From a virus (Duplodnaviria; Caudoviricetes): a DNA stretch of 64,000 nucleotides. Every line of letters begins with the position of its first letter. The first letter of the stretch is position 1. The DNA lies in the IMG/VR virus record IMGVR_UViG_3300035517_000173, positions 4,346-68,345 of that record; one strand, given 5' to 3'. Shown piece after piece: positions 25,521-64,000 of this stretch. A program made the position numbers and the translations under genes. A model generated the notes under the pieces. It worked only from the letters and a program-made list of their open reading frames with translations. It was not told where the DNA came from and did no database searches.

Positions 25521-28280
25521 CTATATTGGACTGGACATTATAATTGTTTCTTTTCTTCGCTGTTTTCTCGTTATCCGCACCGCAAAGTTTGAAAACACAT
25601 CCGGCACGTCATCTAACTGTTTCTTTCCACTTACGGAATATCTCATAAGCAGTGACATCATTACTCCGTATTGTTCGTTTGGCGTGTACATTGACTGGTC
25701 TTTGAATATAACGTGCTGCAATATCCAGTTTGAACACTGATATATTCTCGCTTCTTTGTTCGTTTCCGTCGGCGTGTCTGTTATATTGCAGATATGCCCC
25801 TTTTCCTCGACACGCTTGTTTACTTCCATTGCCACCCTGTCACCGCCTGCGTTTCGCTCAAAGTCACATTCCTGCATACCATGATGCACGATAAGGTTTG
25901 CAGAGTTCTCATACTGCAGCTCATAATCGGCGGTATTATCACAGACGCAGTCCACACAGTAATAATCTTCACCATATTTATACAGGCAAGGCAGTACAAA
26001 GTAGTCTGTTCCTTTTCCCTTTGTATCACATTGTCCGGTGATTATATCCGGCTCTCCATCCGGCAGATTAAGGTATCTCCTAATTTTATCTTCTGGAAAC
26101 AACAATCCCTCACGTTCTACCGGGTCTTGCTTATACAAACATCTGTAAGATATTTCATCCATGAGTAATTGTTGGTCTGCAAAAAATTCTTTTGTAAACC
26201 CACCGTATTCATAATCAAAATTACTTTCTCCGGTAACAGGGTCTATATCCGGCACAGATATAACCTTTACACGTTCATTTCCCTCATAGCTGCGAATTAT
26301 ACGACCAATAACATCATTTACCGACCATCTTGTGGCAATGTGTATCTCCTTGCAGTTCTTTCCGTCTGTGTCCTGTATCTTACGTTGTCTTGCGTCTACG
26401 GAATACTTATCCCACAACTTATTCAGCACAGCCGGATTAAGAGCTTCTTCGATACCGCCTATCATGTCATCCACCAGTAGAAACTTTGACGCTCTTACCT
26501 TACCTGCGTTCTTACTCCCGACGGATGTTGTCTGTAATGACGGGAACGGTTTGTATTTCCCGATATTAAACTGTTCCATCTTTGCGTTTGTAGAAGTTAT
26601 CTTTAAGTCCGGGAAAATCTCATTCCATGTATATTCATCGCTTGTCACAATGTCATATACACCGTCATAGTACATTCTTGTAATATCTCCGCTGTGGGAA
26701 TAGAAAAGAGTAAAATCTTTAGGATACCAACCTATGACGGCACTATTGAAAAACTTCTCGATTGTCGTATTATGGGTAATGATATAATCATCCGTAATAT
26801 ACAAATGGCAATCATCGTCAATCATTATGCACTGACATTCTTCTTTTCCTGCATATTCAACTCTTTTTATAAATCTCTTTACATTCTTTCTCTTTGGTTT
26901 ATATTTTTCTTTATGCCTAGTAAGATTGAAAACTGGTTCGCTATCCGCAAAAAACTGTATTGCAATTACATAGGCATCTTTGCATCGTATGTATTTCCCA
27001 TCTTTCTTATATCCTGCTTTCTTTTTCCTACAACTTGCATAGCCACCCAAAGAGTGAACAAGTTCAATAACATCTTCTGATAATTGTCTTGAGGTTGTGC
27101 AATACTCTATTCCTGTTTTCTGGCAATATCCATCTGTATCTAATAACCCTCTCAACAACCATAGTCTCTGTTCTTTTGAAGCATACATATATTCTTTCGG
27201 TACAAATTTCTCATGACTTCTTTTGCCGAACAACCCATACTTTTTCAAAGCAATGCTCACTAAACTTCCACACTTCGAATTGTTTCCCTCGTGCCCTTTT
27301 ACAACATAGTCATAATTTGATATATGCTTTAACTCATACCCTTTCGGCAAGAATTCATTCATTGCGTCCAACACTTCTTTGTCATTTGTTGAAAATCTTG
27401 TCTGACCACTGGATAAACCTCCATCTCCTAGCAAAGCACCCATTACATAAGGGTGCAGCAATAGATTTTTCTCGTTAAACTCAATAGGTTTCACATAATC
27501 AATCGAGTAATTTAATCGCTTGCCATTTTCAACTCGCAAATTATCAACAATTTCTTCTAAAGTTATTGTTCTTGTCTTATGTATCCCAGTTCTTGTTTCG
27601 CATTGTCTGTCGCATCTACTCTGTACAGTAAACAAATGGTCTTTTGAACACCTACACTTAGAGCCGTCATCCAAATATACGTCATACAACTCTTTTACTC
27701 CTTGCGGATACACTCCGATTACATTCGCAACATTACCATTCGCAGCGATAACCTTATCCCCTACCTTTAATGACGAATTTTTCACAAATCCATCCGGCGT
27801 GAGGACTTTAGAATCCATACTCAAAGCCTTGCCTGCACCGGGAACTAGGGATATACACAATATGTCGTATTCGTCATCAATCATGCCTTGTAGTGCCTGT
27901 GTCAATCCCATTTTGATAAATTGTTTTCTCTTTGGTGCGTAAAACCGTTCTTTGTACTCACGATTCTTCTCAAGGTAAAGAAAATAACTGTCAACCCATT
28001 TGTTCTGTGCCTCAAAAAGCATTGCCTCCCAGTATAAATTACCGTAGTCCTCATTCTGCGTCTGGATATGAAGTGCCTGTGCTGCTTGTTTAATGTATGT
28101 AGTCCATTTGAAACAAAAATCACGTTCTGCATAATTCTCATTCAGAAGTCCTATGCACATATCTAACAATCCTCGCAGTTTGTCAAGGTCAACGCCGTCT
28201 TTCTTGATAGCGTCTCTTAAAGTTTGTATGGCGTGTTTGTATTGATTTTCTGATTCTGACATAGAAAAATGGAACACCAC
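25521..28280 (-). CDS. terL: Terminase large subunit (intein-containing)
   Basis: Walker A PGAGK|TT split by an intein; LLVDD Walker B; nuclease DTKGKGTDY...DDVPD. Confidence 0.9.
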   Translation of the reverse strand: MVFHFSMSESENQYKHAIQTLRDAIKKDGVDLDKLRGLLDMCIGLLNENYAERDFCFKWTTYIKQAAQALHIQTQNEDYGNLYWEAMLFEAQNKWVDSYFLYLEKNREYKERFYAPKRKQFIKMGLTQALQGMIDDEYDILCISLVPGAGKALSMDSKVLTPDGFVKNSSLKVGDKVIAANGNVANVIGVYPQGVKELYDVYLDDGSKCRCSKDHLFTVQSRCDRQCETRTGIHKTRTITLEEIVDNLRVENGKRLNYSIDYVKPIEFNEKNLLLHPYVMGALLGDGGLSSGQTRFSTNDKEVLDAMNEFLPKGYELKHISNYDYVVKGHEGNNSKCGSLVSIALKKYGLFGKRSHEKFVPKEYMYASKEQRLWLLRGLLDTDGYCQKTGIEYCTTSRQLSEDVIELVHSLGGYASCRKKKAGYKKDGKYIRCKDAYVIAIQFFADSEPVFNLTRHKEKYKPKRKNVKRFIKRVEYAGKEECQCIMIDDDCHLYITDDYIITHNTTIEKFFNSAVIGWYPKDFTLFYSHSGDITRMYYDGVYDIVTSDEYTWNEIFPDLKITSTNAKMEQFNIGKYKPFPSLQTTSVGSKNAGKVRASKFLLVDDMIGGIEEALNPAVLNKLWDKYSVDARQRKIQDTDGKNCKEIHIATRWSVNDVIGRIIRSYEGNERVKVISVPDIDPVTGESNFDYEYGGFTKEFFADQQLLMDEISYRCLYKQDPVEREGLLFPEDKIRRYLNLPDGEPDIITGQCDTKGKGTDYFVLPCLYKYGEDYYCVDCVCDNTADYELQYENSANLIVHHGMQECDFERNAGGDRVAMEVNKRVEEKGHICNITDTPTETNKEARIYQCSNWILQHVIFKDQSMYTPNEQYGVMMSLLMRYSVSGKKQLDDVPDVFSNFAVRITRKQRRKETIIMSSPI
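26769..27827 (-). mobile_element. 353-aa intein with LAGLIDADG homing endonuclease
   Basis: Starts ALSMDSKVLTPDG, ends CQCIMID...IITHN before Thr; MGALLGDGG and LRGLLDTDG motifs. Confidence 0.92.
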
Positions 28281-28366
28281 CTTTCAAAATTAAAAAGTAA
28301 TGCTCCATTTTGCATTGATACATACGCTCCATCATGCGTATGCCTTAGATGTTTAGTAATTTCGTT

Positions 28367-28789
28367 TTAATACTCCGAACCATTGTTCAGATTTTCATAT
28401 TTTACAATTCCATTGTCAATATATATCAATGTCGGCTTTTCTGATTCTTCATACCGCATATATCCGATAAACTCATCTGTTTCTATATACGGACTTATGA
28501 AGTCCAAAAAATTTTCTATTTCTGAATCATAATTTTTCAGATTGCTTCTCACATTCAAGTGATATTGACCATCTATATCGTTATATTCCATTTTACTATC
28601 TGATATGCTGTCAAAATAAAAACTGTCACCAGTTAAAACCATTCTGTGTCTAGGACAACCAAATAATTCGTGGTCTATGCAAGGTTTTTCTTTTGTTTCA
28701 CACAACAAATACTTAACAGCGTCTATTATTTCTTTTGGCGTATCCTCTTTAAAAGCAACGCCAATATTTAACTCTGTATACATTCCCAT
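28367..28789 (-). CDS. Conserved phage hypothetical protein
   Basis: MGMYTE...IGYMRYEE; good RBS. Confidence 0.75.
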   Translation of the reverse strand: MGMYTELNIGVAFKEDTPKEIIDAVKYLLCETKEKPCIDHELFGCPRHRMVLTGDSFYFDSISDSKMEYNDIDGQYHLNVRSNLKNYDSEIENFLDFISPYIETDEFIGYMRYEESEKPTLIYIDNGIVKYENLNNGSEY

Positions 28790-29064
28790 TATAAATCACA
28801 CATCCCTTCTGCTATATACGATTCCATTGTTGCGATTTCATCCGTTGTCAACTCATTTGAGACATTAAGTATATTCAATATTTCTTCACAAAACTTTTTC
28901 ATTATCGGGCTTTCCGTTTTACTATACATTTCATTTACCGTAGAAATAACCTGTTCGACACGCACAAGAAATTCTTCAAGTGGAAGTCCATTCACTTCTA
29001 AGTCTTTTTTCGCTCTATCAGCAACTTCCTTCGCCATTTCTTGTATCGTTGGAAATTTAGCCAT
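28789..29064 (-). CDS. Hypothetical protein
   Basis: Coupled ORF. Confidence 0.65.
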   Translation of the reverse strand: MAKFPTIQEMAKEVADRAKKDLEVNGLPLEEFLVRVEQVISTVNEMYSKTESPIMKKFCEEILNILNVSNELTTDEIATMESYIAEGMCDL

Positions 29065-29657
29065 TATTTACGCTCCTTTCCGTTCCATTCAAAACCAAAG
29101 TCTGTACGTTTAATCTTGCATTTAGGTTCATTATCCAGCCAAAATACAATGCCCTCTATGTAGTTATCATGGAGATATTGCTTTATGCCATCAAATGTAC
29201 GCTCGACTTCAATGATGTTTTCTCCATGCTTTACTAACTGGTCACTTTTAAAATTATATGGATTGCCTTGAAAATGCTTTCCAACCGCCTCATATGTTCC
29301 ATCCGGCAACTGCAACCCTTGATTACTCCACATTGAAGTTATATATTCAGCTTCAACAAACCACTTGTCAGCCGGATTATTCCTATCGCATTTTACCCAA
29401 CAAGGCATATGTCCTGTCACTTTGTCCGGCTCATCTTGACACTTAATAGCACCGTCTGGTATCGGTTTTCCATTTTTAGCGTCATATCGTTTATATAACT
29501 TTCTGTTGATAATGGCACAGCATGAACCATCCCATTTCACCGTTGCAACTCCCTCGCCATCAAGAACCCACTCCATTCCACCTGTGACGTTTGGAAGTAT
29601 GTCAACGATTTTGTGATTCTCATAAACTCTCTCAAACAATGTTGGTATTTTCTTCAT
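29064..29657 (-). CDS. DUF5565/RLIG1-like RNA ligase (nucleotidyltransferase)
   Basis: MKKIPTLF, ATVKWDGSCC (KxDG adenylation motif), GTYEAVG, EGIVF, CKIKRTDFG. Confidence 0.75.
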   Translation of the reverse strand: MKKIPTLFERVYENHKIVDILPNVTGGMEWVLDGEGVATVKWDGSCCAIINRKLYKRYDAKNGKPIPDGAIKCQDEPDKVTGHMPCWVKCDRNNPADKWFVEAEYITSMWSNQGLQLPDGTYEAVGKHFQGNPYNFKSDQLVKHGENIIEVERTFDGIKQYLHDNYIEGIVFWLDNEPKCKIKRTDFGFEWNGKERK

Positions 29658-59740: not shown

Positions 59741-60115
59741 CTACACCTCGCTTTCATATCTGCCATCTATAATCATTCTATCTATGACACATTCCAGTTC
59801 TTCGTATGATATAGACAACTTGATATTCTCCATATTTTCATTGTAATATTCGATTTTGTGTCCGTTTTGGCTGTGGTCTGCACCATGAATATAATTAGGT
59901 TTTTTAGTTGGAGAACCAAACCCGCCTACTCCATATTCCTTTTTCAAGAAATCTATTCTCTCTTTTTTATCTGTGTTAGAATGAAAAAACTCTGCAATTC
60001 TTTTCTTCCCATTTGTGAAACCACTACCACCATTTGCGTAATCTTCAATAGGATTATATTCTTGCGATTCGTTCTGTATAAACGAAAATATAGACATTTG
60101 TCCGTCCATTGTCAT
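59741..60115 (-). CDS. Hypothetical protein
   Basis: GQMSIF; GSGF..GK.RI motif. Confidence 0.7.
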   Translation of the reverse strand: MTMDGQMSIFSFIQNESQEYNPIEDYANGGSGFTNGKKRIAEFFHSNTDKKERIDFLKKEYGVGGFGSPTKKPNYIHGADHSQNGHKIEYYNENMENIKLSISYEELECVIDRMIIDGRYESEV

Positions 60116-62025
60116 ACCTCGCTAACTGTCAATTTTTCGTCATCTGACCGCCTAATCATTATTATCTGATTGTCCATTTCCGGCACTCTCCAACTGTCAA
60201 GGCTCTCGGTATCGTCCGTAATAATCGGAAGTGTTACATTGTTTGCCCTCTGAAACGCCCGACAAATATCTATCTCTGCTAAAATCTTTGCACCATGATT
60301 AAGGTTTCTGTCGTAACTTTCGCCATTTACTACTGGTTGGCAAATATCTTTCAATTCACCGTTTATCTGTGGCTCAAACATCTTAAACTGGATATACTCA
60401 AAATTGTTGTTCACGCTTTCTTCCAGTAATTCATTTTTCTTCCGGTCAAACTCTTTCAGATAGTTCAGAGTCCGTTCTTCATCTGCAATTTTCTGTGAGA
60501 TTTCCCTCTGTTCTTTCTGCAATTCTGCAATCCGTTCATCAATCGCAACATTACTTTCAGATTTTGCAATCTGCTTTTCGATTTCAAGCAACTGTGACCG
60601 CAAGTCGTTTTCTTCATCCTTTAGATTTTGTTTCGTTGTGAAGAAAGAATTACTCTCTTTCATGGCTTTTTCTTTTTCTGCAATTTGATTATTCAGTTCA
60701 ACAATGTCCGTTCTTTCTACAATGTCCATTAACGGTGGAAGTTTACAGAACTGGTTTCTAAGGTCTGCAATGGCTGTATTCAGCATTTCAAGGCTTTTCT
60801 TGTGTTCGGCAAGTTCCAGTTCAAGTGTGCGTAATGTTTCCTGCTCAACCTCAATTTCAGATTTCAAACGATTTCCGCTTTCTTCAATGCTTTTCAATTT
60901 TTCTTCTCTATGGCTTTCAAATTCTGCCCTTAATTCGTCCTTTTTCTCACTAGGGTATTCTTGCCCGCAATACTGACAAATAAGGCTATTTTCGTCAAAT
61001 TCAAGGTCTTGCGTGTCTTTGTACTTCTCACGCAATCTCTCAACATCTATCCGATTTTCTTTGATTTCCCGCTTTACATAAATAATATCTTTTTCTGTGT
61101 CTTTAATCGTTCTATTGGTTTTATCTGCAAGGAATCTCTTTTCTGATAGCTTGTTCTCAATCTCTAACCTATACTTAGAATTTTCCTCATTCGCCTGTCT
61201 GATAAGGTCATTTACTTGAAACTTCAACTCCAGTATTCCGTCACTTGCCTTGTCGATTTCTTCCATCTGCTTAGATAAGTCATCCTGCTTTGCCTTATTC
61301 TCTTTCAACTGCTCCTTTATGGCATTTCTGCTCAATTCCAGTTCGGCAACATCAATGTCAATCTTATGTGTTTCAAGTTCCTTAATTGCTGAAATCTTCT
61401 CATCTCTTTGCTGTTCCAATCCGACAATATTTCTTGCTTTGCTGCCGTGAATTTTATCGTTGCAGCTTTGCTTGATTTCTTTTACACTTCCAACTTGAAG
61501 TAATGCTCTGATTGGCTCAAATTCAGAAAACATATCAACAATTTGTACGTTCGTGAATTTTCCAAATGTATTCTCTAACAGTTCTCTGCGTTTGGAAGTG
61601 TCCATCCGCAAGAAAGAATAAGGATTCACGCATAAATCGCTAGGAATGATTTCTGAAACATATTTCGCATATTCTCCGCTTTGTTTTGGAATATCTGACA
61701 CGTAACAATCCGTCACATTTCCAGTGATTTCTCCCTTTTTGTTGCGTTTCTGATAGTGTGACTTTTTGAGTGTTATGCCGCTGTCAAGTGCCAGTTCAAC
61801 CTCTGTCACAACATCATCAATGTCTTTACCCTCACTGTCATGCGGTCTTATGCCTGTAATTTCCTTGCCGTTCTCATCCTTAAGATTTAATATCCAGTAG
61901 ATAGCACGTTTAATTGTGGATTTTCCAACTTCATTACATCCGCTTATGGATGTAATATTATATAAGTCTGTCTCAAAATTATTATGCTTGCAGAAATTCC
62001 GTAAACGAATGTGTGTAAATTTCAT
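60112..62025 (-). CDS. SMC/SbcC-like AAA ATPase
   Basis: GCNEVGKST Walker A, long coiled coil, LNHG signature, IITDDTE. Confidence 0.88.
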   Translation of the reverse strand: MKFTHIRLRNFCKHNNFETDLYNITSISGCNEVGKSTIKRAIYWILNLKDENGKEITGIRPHDSEGKDIDDVVTEVELALDSGITLKKSHYQKRNKKGEITGNVTDCYVSDIPKQSGEYAKYVSEIIPSDLCVNPYSFLRMDTSKRRELLENTFGKFTNVQIVDMFSEFEPIRALLQVGSVKEIKQSCNDKIHGSKARNIVGLEQQRDEKISAIKELETHKIDIDVAELELSRNAIKEQLKENKAKQDDLSKQMEEIDKASDGILELKFQVNDLIRQANEENSKYRLEIENKLSEKRFLADKTNRTIKDTEKDIIYVKREIKENRIDVERLREKYKDTQDLEFDENSLICQYCGQEYPSEKKDELRAEFESHREEKLKSIEESGNRLKSEIEVEQETLRTLELELAEHKKSLEMLNTAIADLRNQFCKLPPLMDIVERTDIVELNNQIAEKEKAMKESNSFFTTKQNLKDEENDLRSQLLEIEKQIAKSESNVAIDERIAELQKEQREISQKIADEERTLNYLKEFDRKKNELLEESVNNNFEYIQFKMFEPQINGELKDICQPVVNGESYDRNLNHGAKILAEIDICRAFQRANNVTLPIITDDTESLDSWRVPEMDNQIIMIRRSDDEKLTVSEV

Positions 62026-62028
62026 ATA

Positions 62029-62661
62029 TTATTCCTCTCCTTTCACATCTCCGACATGGTATCTCCCATAACCGCTTGACCTACCGCTGCCGATTCCACT
62101 TCCAAATCCTGCAATATTGATAATGTTCAAAATCTGTTCTGCACTATATACATTTTCCATATAGGAAATTGTAAACGTAGCACTCCAACCACTAAAACGA
62201 TTAAGACGTGCTAATACTGGACTTCCCTTTTTAGGCGATATAAGTTTTTCATCAATAAAATGTTCTGAAAACACAATAGGCACTAAATCACCAACAATAT
62301 TTACATTTAAGTCAAATTTTGTCTTGTACTTATCAATCCCACTTCTAACGACCGAATCTCCAAATGATTTTTTTAGTCCAAACCCAGTAATGCAAGGTGC
62401 GTTTTCCTTTAATGCCTTTACTAGTCCTTTTTCTGAAAAATCTTTTGGTTTCCCATTTTTCCAGTGCATGGAAGTAATAATGCACTCCCATTCATTCGGT
62501 TTCTCATTATCTTTTGCCTTATCTTTTCTTTGGTTAATAAGTTGCCTTGCTGTAACATCGTTCATTTTGTTCAGCACCAAATCGCTATCTCCGACGATTG
62601 TTACCTCCATGTACTTTGTTGCAAACGGTTTCATTTCGATTGTGTTTGTAGTTCCTTTCAT
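62029..62661 (-). CDS. RAMP/Cas7-like RNA-binding protein (Vipr-like)
   Basis: N-terminal beta strand EVTIVGDSDLVLNK; W.A...ISY strand; C-terminal Gly loop AGFGSGIGSGRSSGYGRY; directly downstream of the pentamer array. Confidence 0.75.
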   Translation of the reverse strand: MKGTTNTIEMKPFATKYMEVTIVGDSDLVLNKMNDVTARQLINQRKDKAKDNEKPNEWECIITSMHWKNGKPKDFSEKGLVKALKENAPCITGFGLKKSFGDSVVRSGIDKYKTKFDLNVNIVGDLVPIVFSEHFIDEKLISPKKGSPVLARLNRFSGWSATFTISYMENVYSAEQILNIINIAGFGSGIGSGRSSGYGRYHVGDVKGEE

Positions 62662-62700
62662 TTTTAATTCCCCCTTAAACTTAAATTATTTTATTTCTAC

Positions 62701-63185
62701 CTCTACAACCTTGTAAGTGACAATAACAAATACAATATGCTGTCCTAGACTGTGATTTCCTGTCCTGTTATGTCCTTTAATACGCTATAGTGTTCTATGC
62801 AAGTGGCTATTGCCACTTATAAGATTGTAGAGAATAGTGTACTGTATTATGGTATGGTGTACTGTCGTGTTGTTTTGTTTTAATACGCTAAATTGATGTG
62901 TTTTGATTTGTTATCTGCCTTGATAGGCATTGGGTTAGCCTTAAAACTTTACAAGTATAGTTTATTGTTCTGTTTTGTCATGTGATGTACTGTACTGTTT
63001 TGCAGTGTTCTTGTTAGAATTAAAGCCAACCAAATACCTACCAAATTGCCCCATAATTCGTGAGTAAAACATATCCAAAGTAAAGATGTATTATAATGTT
63101 CTTTGCTGTTTTGTTATAATCTGTGATTTCATGTCCTGTTCTTTCCTGTTTTTATAGATGGTTTTACCCACCAACTATAAGGCAA
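62701..63185 (-). ncRNA. Array of four guide-like RNA units of NN-(ACA) pentamers, three enclosed by 24-28-bp stems
   Basis: Units at 63087-63151, 62956-63015, 62833-62913, 62731-62800; stems 63158-85/63046-72, 63020-43/62921-44, 62806-32/62701-27; 11 G-U pairs on the minus strand versus 1 A-C. Confidence 0.85.
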
Positions 63186-63203
63186 CTAGCAGATATTAAA
63201 TTT

Positions 63204-63632
63204 TCAAAGTGCGTCTATCTCTGCAAAAATACTCTCTAATTCAGTTAGCGTGTGATACCTCTTTTTGAAAGACTGCAATTCCAGTTTTGCCCTTTTCAAT
63301 AAACTTTGGTATTCATCTTCGTTCTTTAAAATCATTTTCACTGGTTGATATACGCTTTTTTGCGTTGTAATCTGAAAAGTTCTTATTGGTTCGTTATCTT
63401 TTTCAACTGGGGTAAATACAAACATTCGTATCATTTCTCTTGCTTGCAGATTTCTATATTTCTCCCCGGCTACAGTGTCATTCCACTCAAAATCATTGTG
63501 TATGACCGAATTTTCGTTCCTTGCCAAATCCACAACATTCTGTGGCGTGATATTTTCTAGTTTAGCTATTTCCTCATAGGCTTTTTGTGCGTCAGCCTTA
63601 TATTTTGGAATTTTCCATGATATTTTCTCCAT
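63204..63632 (-). CDS. Accessory protein immediately upstream of the pentamer array
   Basis: ITPQNVVDLARNENSVIHNDFEWNDTVAGEKYR..QAR motif; helical. Confidence 0.8.
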   Translation of the reverse strand: MEKISWKIPKYKADAQKAYEEIAKLENITPQNVVDLARNENSVIHNDFEWNDTVAGEKYRNLQAREMIRMFVFTPVEKDNEPIRTFQITTQKSVYQPVKMILKNEDEYQSLLKRAKLELQSFKKRYHTLTELESIFAEIDAL

Positions 63633-63635
63633 TTG

Positions 63636-63998
63636 CTAACACCTCGATTCTTCTAATTCCTTAACTTCTCCATTTTCGATAACATACCAAGTGTTTTCTT
63701 TGATGGTTTCTCCGTCTACTTGTACCATCTTCGCACCTTTCAATGTCCATGAATCAGGTTTCCAGTATTCAGATTCGTCACCTTCCCAATCTGCAAATAC
63801 AAGATGTGAACCTTTAACGCCTTTGGCTTTGGACTTGTAACCCCATGCAATAGCAACCGATTCTTTATCTTTTGCAGATGAAGCACCCTTGTAACCAGTG
63901 GCAGATGAAGCACCACAGTTACCAGTGGCAGATGAAGCACCCTTGTAACCAGTGGCAGATGAAGCACCCTTGTAACCAGTGGCAGATGAAGCACCCTT
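63636..63998 (-). CDS. Gly/Ala/Ser repeat protein (partial, runs off the window)
   Basis: True frame reads (GASSATGYK)n...AIAWGYKSKAKG...VDGETIKENTWY; the track ORF 63740-63994 is the wrong frame. Confidence 0.8.
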   Translation of the reverse strand, partial: KGASSATGYKGASSATGYKGASSATGNCGASSATGYKGASSAKDKESVAIAWGYKSKAKGVKGSHLVFADWEGDESEYWKPDSWTLKGAKMVQVDGETIKENTWYVIENGEVKELEESRC

Positions 63999-64000
63999 GT
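63874..64000. repeat. 27-bp tandem repeat (at least 4.7 copies)
   Basis: GCAGATGAAGCACCCTTGTAACCAGTG units. Confidence 0.95.

Follow-up and report, generated by a model that had tools for sequence, protein, structure and literature searches.

Background

According to 10.64898/2026.04.26.720920, VIPR systems combine a lone ancestral RAMP protein (Vipr) with vrRNAs of 9-16 YNNGG pentamers, and the NN dinucleotides of these guides pair with dsDNA while every third base of the target, usually the wobble position of a codon, is skipped. In the cryo-EM structure of the SUSP1 Vipr each pentamer holds one protomer, whose G-loop recognises the two G bases through D177 and W178 (10.64898/2026.04.26.720927). 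A later VIPR preprint of 2026 describes the targeting of conserved codons in an essential satellite gene, and the main text of 10.64898/2026.10.21.760802 adds 21 non-canonical VIPR-like clusters found by entropy periodicity, with GAC/NN, CAC/NN, WGT/NN, TGH/NN and other patterns. The VIPR class, the skip rule, codon-matched targeting and odd triplets are already in these 2026 preprints; the new points here are PC4/YdbC as a target and a second, clean demonstration that the code holds in a family with an A-H-A scaffold.

In KT454805.2 the SUSP1 Vipr gene lies at 28474-29061 and vap1 at 28031-28471, with YNNGG tracts in both flanking gaps. The locus (27499-29511) could be re-found from sequence alone, with one YNNGG tract upstream and three downstream. 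Vipr is 195 aa and vap1 146 aa long, and the residue numbers used in the cryo-EM preprint fit the Vipr protein.

The cassette and its surroundings

The window, ie the whole 64,000-nt stretch that was analysed, makes up the final 64 kb of an IMG/VR virus record that is 68,345 b long and has a completeness rating of 100%. All genes around the array described here are carried by the minus strand. A 142-aa accessory gene at 63204..63632 (phrog_15946, no Pfam) lies directly upstream of an ORF-free array of 542 nt at 62662..63203, in which four pentamer tracts (units 1-4) run in the same direction as the genes on either side. The array is followed at 62029..62661 by the gene for a 210-aa Vipr-like RAMP with a Cas7 fold (phrog_4652, no Pfam) and an invariant C-terminal glycine-rich loop. 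Beyond this gene is an SbcC-like ATPase and, further away, RecT; the other neighbours are unknowns, and no cas1/2, Cas5/6/10 or large subunit was found near the array. There are no CRISPR-size direct repeats in 60000-64000. An Rfam scan of 62400-63500 gave nothing meaningful, blastn of the array region against 50,697 GenBank phages gave no match, and scans for promoters and terminators gave nothing exceeding shuffle expectation. Sigma-70-like -35/-10 pairs (10/12 matches) do occur on the minus strand inside unit 2 (62954-62981) and unit 1 (63090-63117); they are built from the xxACA pentamers and the terminal ATA-type pentamers, and their number is not above that in shuffles. At the end of the record a 27-nt tandem repeat (63874-64000, 4.7 copies, 92% match) sits within an ORF related to phrog_27197/phrog_4433, and may be the cause of the assembly stopping there.

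The AF2 model of the 210-aa protein has a pLDDT of 85. Foldseek of the model against the PDB gave 54 matches at E<1e-3, and all of the 35 listed are CRISPR RAMP chains (Csm3, Cmr4, Cmr1 and type VII Cas7); in BFVD a phage 'RAMP superfamily protein' and proteins of archaeal viruses are among the matches. On this model the protein is a small lone Cas7-type RAMP, with an RRM core, a glycine-rich loop and a thumb. Its best structural matches are the Cas7 backbones of Class 1 CRISPR systems (Csm3, Cmr4, type VII Cas7), with which it shares the RRM core and G-loop, and a thumb periodically interrupting the guide-target duplex is a further shared feature. Unlike CRISPR, the period here is 5 nt with two paired bases, compared to 6 nt with five paired bases.

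The 210-aa family comprises 2052 protein clusters at 90% identity and is unnamed. Relatives with 55-80% identity are encoded at 17 IMG/VR loci, and a prophage in a Lachnospiraceae MAG also encodes one; tblastn of the RAMP found none in the 50,697 GenBank phages. In each of the 19 related loci a homologue of the 142-aa gene (40-78% identity) precedes the array, and the module therefore consists of accessory gene, array and 210-aa gene. In the Lachnospiraceae prophage (L217:1-3630) an SMC/AAA_15-type ATPase lies upstream of this cassette; in the window (60112-63632) the SbcC-like ATPase lies downstream, so that the internal order is the same and the surroundings differ. Tracts of NN-A(C/T/A)A are found at the equivalent place in many relatives, with guides that differ between the arrays. 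Triplet counts over the units of 16 arrays were 294 ACA, 174 ATA, 154 AAA and 33 AGA. The tracts are enclosed by helices of 12-30 bp with sequences differing between units and between loci; four of five folded tracts from relatives were closed by helices of unrelated sequence, and among the folded tracts no shared structured 3' tail was seen.

This arrangement has much in common with the type II VIPR systems of SUSP1 and a P. fulva prophage (10.64898/2026.04.26.720920, 10.64898/2026.04.26.720927, 10.64898/2026.10.15.759431). These are likewise phage-borne, with a small lone Cas7-like RAMP that has a G-loop, a small accessory gene, and several co-oriented guide units in the flanking non-coding DNA, each of 9-16 pentamers with three fixed and two variable bases. 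There are also differences from SUSP1. The scaffold is A-H-A (ACA > ATA > AAA), not GGY. Helices of 12-30 bp with unrelated sequences close the units, where the SUSP1 clade has a conserved 3' pseudoknot tail, and the array has the accessory gene on one side and the RAMP gene on the other. The 142-aa protein has no similarity to SUSP1 vap1. SUSP1 is an Escherichia phage, whereas the host range here, judged from Lachnospiraceae MAGs, is gut Clostridia. An hhalign comparison of the 210-aa family profile with SUSP1 Vipr gave a probability of 55% and E 1.2e-4, a weak match limited to the C-terminal 57 residues with the G-loop. In this weak alignment D177 and W178, which contact the G bases in SUSP1 Vipr, fall on the invariant S192 and G193 of the 210-aa family; such a replacement, resting on a weak alignment, would fit a scaffold without G.

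The non-canonical clusters, so far as the main text of 10.64898/2026.10.21.760802 describes them, resemble the array in their 5-nt period, in having about 10 repeats of a non-GGY triplet and in an adjoining protein with a Vipr-like fold. That main text names neither ACA/ATA/AAA nor the complement TDT, and the A-H-A family may be among the 21 clusters. Of the patterns named there and in the earlier text (GGY, NNNGG, YNNNG, NNNNG, GAC, CAC, WGT and TGH), none fits the A-H-A triplet on either strand. The main text reports no targets for the clusters, whereas two guides are decoded here.

Unit 2 and its predicted fold

Unit 2 lies at 62956-63015 on the minus strand and consists of 12 pentamers, each an NN dinucleotide followed by an ACA-like triplet, which in the reverse complement read aaCAA gaACA ctGCA aaACA gtACA gtACA tcACA tgACA aaACA gaACA atAAA ctATA. 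A TGT at a period of 5 nt in 8/10 positions is unique to unit 2 within the 64-kb window; the next-best trinucleotide, TTT, reaches 6/10 and none other reaches 8/10. The NN series, aa ga ct aa gt gt tc tg aa ga at ct, is exactly that reported in the first-pass annotation, and the decode offered there, (K/N)(D/E)L(K/N)VVS(W/C)(K/N)(D/E), follows directly from it. In the ten pentamers of the guide core (62966..63015, minus) the NN correspond to codon positions 1-2 of K-E-L-N-V-V-S-W-N-(D/E), and the target form of the guide, with one nucleotide skipped, is AAnGAnCTnAAnGTnGTnTCnTGnAAnGAn. The two 3' pentamers, atAAA and ctATA (62956..62965, minus), have degenerate triplets and, as had also been remarked, no target match: opposite their at and ct the targets read GG/AA/CG and AA/GA. 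They probably mark where the tract ends or serve as a handle.

Unit 2 is placed in the loop of a long predicted helix, the arms of which lie at 63010..63045 (5' arm, minus) and 62918..62955 (3' arm, minus). The resulting 141-nt hairpin has a folding energy of -39.6 kcal/mol (z -5.2). The same region on the plus strand reaches only -25.0 kcal/mol, ie the minus strand is more stable by 14.6 kcal/mol, and the whole array compared with shuffles gives z -8.0 on the minus and z -2.3 on the plus strand. The innermost five predicted pairs overlap guide units 0-1, which counts against reading unit 2 as a VIPR guide.

If the plus strand (UGU-NN) were the RNA, unit 2 would be an antisense guide against PC4 mRNA. 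Such an arrangement would suit the closest solved folds, which are those of type III Cas7 proteins that target RNA, the in vitro pairing of Vipr filaments with ssRNA (10.64898/2026.04.26.720927), and the slightly better fold of the plus strand in the unit 3+4 region. However, every flanking gene is on the minus strand, the fold of unit 2 and that of the array as a whole favour the minus strand by the margins just given, and the arrays of SUSP1 are co-oriented with vipr. We consider a plus-strand guide very improbable, and the minus strand is taken as the RNA in what follows.

Matches of unit 2 to PC4/YdbC genes

Genomes were searched with pentamer units 1-9 and a 1-nt skip, ie with the pattern GA.CT.AA.GT.GT.TC.TG.AA.GA. 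There were six exact matches in 596 Gb of prokaryote genomes (genome_contigs), each falling in frame on (K/R)ELNVVSWN(D/E) within a gene of 74-80 aa belonging to PF02229 (PC4/YdbC); three of the six also fit unit 0. The PF02229 scores are 36.7-44.8 bits against a cut-off of 25, and the context of the motif in the six genes is GW(N/T/R)(K/R)ELNVVSWN(D/E)G..K.D(L/I)R(D/E)W. The target family is YdbC/DUF2128, now within PF02229, with solved structures 2ltd/2ltt and 3pm7; a PC4 protein from a phage contig (L085), whose gene fits the guide at 19/20, resembles 3pm7 and 2ltd/2ltt with E 1e-22 to 1e-24, and the L021 protein, with a guide fit of 20/20 in its gene, matches phrog_26484. The YdbC/PC4 motif, which the first-pass annotation had given, is thus a real one and agrees with the solved YdbC family. 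Trp32 of YdbC stacks on ssDNA (PMC3575825), and when the motif is aligned to that numbering the W of VSWN corresponds to Trp32, on the DNA-stacking beta-strand.

The exact 10-unit and 9-unit patterns gave no match in IMG/VR, and that no phage there matches all 10 units counts against phages as the target. With the variable fifth codon freed there were 26 matches, seven of them in PC4 genes, and it is only because this codon was relaxed that the phage genes were found. Agreement with the guide is 19/20 in five of the seven, 18/20 in another and 17/20 in the last; in the best the single mismatch is at the first base of the fifth codon. Annotation covered three of the seven contigs. One (L096) carries terminase and portal genes, the second (L079) has PolA, a primase-helicase and an exonuclease beside PC4, and the third (L089) has a methyltransferase and a replication initiator. 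Metagenome 3300045988 is the source of four of the seven and also of seven of the 17 loci with a related RAMP. PC4/YdbC genes are present in both phages and hosts, as had been stated, in the form of these seven contigs at 17-19/20 and of chromosomal ydbC genes. The virus itself has none: there is no PF02229 gene in its 68,345-b record, in keeping with the earlier remark that the window lacks one, and no self-match of unit 2 at up to three mismatches.

The 9-unit pattern had 20 matches in metagenomes, of which two are in PC4 genes and 18 are evident chance matches, with in-frame stops or in unrelated reading frames. In 401 Clostridia genomes the 10-unit pattern with up to two mismatches gave 16 matches, 11 of which read the PC4 motif in the matched strings, and the control pattern written backwards gave 12 matches. 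Shuffled guide orders reach a maximum of 15-16/20 on the phage PC4 loci, and the guide windows taken from 18 related arrays all stay below 15/18 on PC4 genes. A protein-alignment search for phage PC4 genes found five loci only, the best at 16/20.

The agreement with PC4 could itself be a coincidence, or the relic of a guide no longer functional. In favour of this are the predominance of chance among the metagenome matches and the fact that PC4 was tested for one of the four units, unit 1 having no target and unit 3 chance-level matches only. Against this, eight exact and 18 near matches fall in frame on one 10-codon motif of one family. The matched PC4 genes are only about 50% identical to each other, and the hits of a chance 18-base pattern would scatter. 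Unit 4 behaves likewise on another family. A fortuitous or defunct match is accordingly hard to credit, and unit 2 is treated below as a guide matched to the PC4/YdbC motif.

Phage or host as the owner of the target

All of the 20/20 and 18/18 matches are chromosomal, and the perfect ones are in the ydbC genes of Treponema, Spirochaetaceae and Kiritimatiellae. Five of the chromosomal matches (L025, L020, L024, L022 and L069) were found in housekeeping contexts. The Kiritimatiellae ydbC adjoins a pyrB-like carbamoyltransferase gene, the spirochaete ydbC a tRNA-synthetase gene, and a ydbC from a Clostridia genome adjoins clpX. In two Oscillospiraceae MAGs ydbC directly precedes ligA; at L020:1323-3606 and L025:3764-6047 it overlaps the start of an ORF of 683-701 aa for the NAD-dependent DNA ligase, and the two genes look like one operon.

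The working target could be the host's own chromosomal ydbC, ie the guide would serve takeover of the host and not conflict between phages. As ydbC directly precedes and overlaps ligA in some Oscillospiraceae, a block there could also cut ligA transcription. That the perfect matches are exclusively chromosomal, and that about 3% of the sampled Clostridia species match unit 2 at 18/20 or better, speak for a host target. On the other hand, the phyla with perfect matches are improbable hosts for the phage, whose RAMP relatives are in Lachnospiraceae, and none of the five genomes with a perfect or near-perfect ydbC match carries the RAMP gene. In the sets examined in 10.64898/2026.04.26.720920, moreover, published VIPR guides show no self or host targeting above 80%. 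Since the guide reads only positions 1-2 of an invariant motif and matches it across phyla, a perfect match does not identify the victim. From the chromosomal matches it is clear that the guide follows a conserved motif in the protein, but not that the genomes concerned are targets. On balance a host gene as the working target seems unlikely, though it deserves to be kept in mind.

Rather less probable still is that the guide has been kept on the invariant DNA-contact strand as a broad-spectrum weapon against any PC4/YdbC gene, host ydbC included. If the guide were such a weapon, the essential DNA ligase would be silenced as well wherever ydbC directly precedes ligA, and VIPR would be used for host shut-off in addition to phage-phage conflict.

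By sequence comparison, then, the guide is matched to the PC4/YdbC motif, with phage-borne copies at 95% identity in similar samples. Most likely it is a PC4/YdbC gene at which unit 2 is aimed, in rival phages or bacteria.

Unit 4 and the remaining units

Unit 4 (62731..62785, minus) has 11 pentamers with the NN series gc tt gg ta gg gg tc gt gg gc tt, which spells A-(L/F)-G-Y-G-G-S-V-G-A-(L/F), a sequence of phage family-A DNA polymerases. An 8-unit pattern gave more than 113 matches in IMG/VR. All 80 of the 80 inspected are in frame on ...ELALGYGGSVGAL..., with 18-21 of 22 bases matching, and they fall within the PF00476 domain of phage family-A polymerases. The site corresponds to motif B of Pol I and covers its YG. 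This second in-frame decode (80/80) bears out the codon-phase gapped code that had been put forward, which is the same as the 1-nt-skip rule published for VIPR in 10.64898/2026.04.26.720920. As in type II VIPR, at least 80% of the variable bases agree with coding DNA, with the one skipped base on the wobble position, and the probable targets are conserved codons in genes of other mobile elements, with no self-target.

The phages with a polymerase match have no PF02229 above the cut-off, and the PC4 phages have no polymerase match. No phage is shared by the two sets, and the guides of units 2 and 4 therefore point at different rivals. Convergence of the two units on a single phage was considered and is ruled out by the disjoint target sets.

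Unit 1 (63087..63151, minus) has 13 pentamers and no target match; its 9-unit pattern has no match in IMG/VR. Unit 3 (62838..62882, minus), with about nine pentamers, gave matches of 14/18 in numbers at chance level. Several of these chance-level matches coincide with a Q-H-R-L-P-P peptide that recurs close to the polymerase in the phages that unit 4 would target. Unit 3 has no long enclosing helix of its own, whereas units 1, 2 and 4 each have one. A direct repeat, AGCGTATTAAA, occurs immediately before both unit 3 and unit 4 (62662-62900, minus).

TRAP sites in Bacillus trp leaders consist of 11 (G/U)AG triplets with spacers of 2-3 nt, and are bound by an 11-mer TRAP ring. The tracts in the array resemble them in having a triplet, a 2-nt spacer and about 11 units, and might be mere sites for an oligomeric RNA-binding protein, with NN uninformative. 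The identical 3+2 periodicity and the similar number of units (10-12) are in keeping with such a role. In contrast to TRAP sites, the triplet is A-H-A and the spacers carry coding information; conserved codons from two protein families would not appear in spacers without a function, and the conserved neighbour is a RAMP, not a TRAP-like protein. We give this explanation almost no weight. A TRAP-like or RecT-like binding tract, a decoy for MazF (ACA), a rut site and a replication origin were all dropped as candidates, as the dinucleotides spell codons.

Proposed mechanism

The pentamer array, the codon-phase matches, the RAMP and the cassette together lead to a VIPR-type system with an A-H-A scaffold instead of GGY, and there is in our judgement a high probability that unit 2 is a guide RNA (vrRNA) of such a system carried by the phage. 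The weak homology to Vipr, the non-GGY scaffold, and the long stems in place of the 3' pseudoknot tail count against a VIPR assignment.

By analogy with the SUSP1 VIPR, the minus strand would be transcribed, and the pentamer tract either released from the long helix or presented in its loop. Copies of the 210-aa Cas7-like protein would then bind, one per pentamer as in SUSP1, so that the A-H-A triplets are held in the filament and the ten NN are exposed. The exposed NN would pair with a DNA strand, every third target base being skipped. As the guide has coding-strand sense, it would pair with the template DNA strand and not with mRNA, and this inability to pair with mRNA favours DNA as the target, provided that the minus strand is the RNA. 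Pairing with the template strand would probably result in transcriptional silencing of the PC4/YdbC gene and of the genes downstream. The guide reads codon positions 1-2, and therefore synonymous changes cannot break the match. The likeliest owners of the target would be rival phages with PC4 in an early or replication module.

Conclusions

The code in which two bases are read and one is skipped does not depend on the GGY scaffold: it is followed with A-H-A triplets by a large RAMP family in phages of gut Clostridia. The change of scaffold coincides with replacement of the G-reading residues, as far as the weak alignment to SUSP1 Vipr indicates, and a direct structural test of scaffold recognition is therefore possible. 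Caution is also called for in assigning targets, as a guide that reads only positions 1-2 of the codons of an invariant motif matches genes across phyla. The genes of PC4/YdbC ssDNA-binding proteins are a new target class for guides of this kind, and the presence of a PC4 guide beside a polymerase guide suggests that it is the replication modules of rivals which are attacked.
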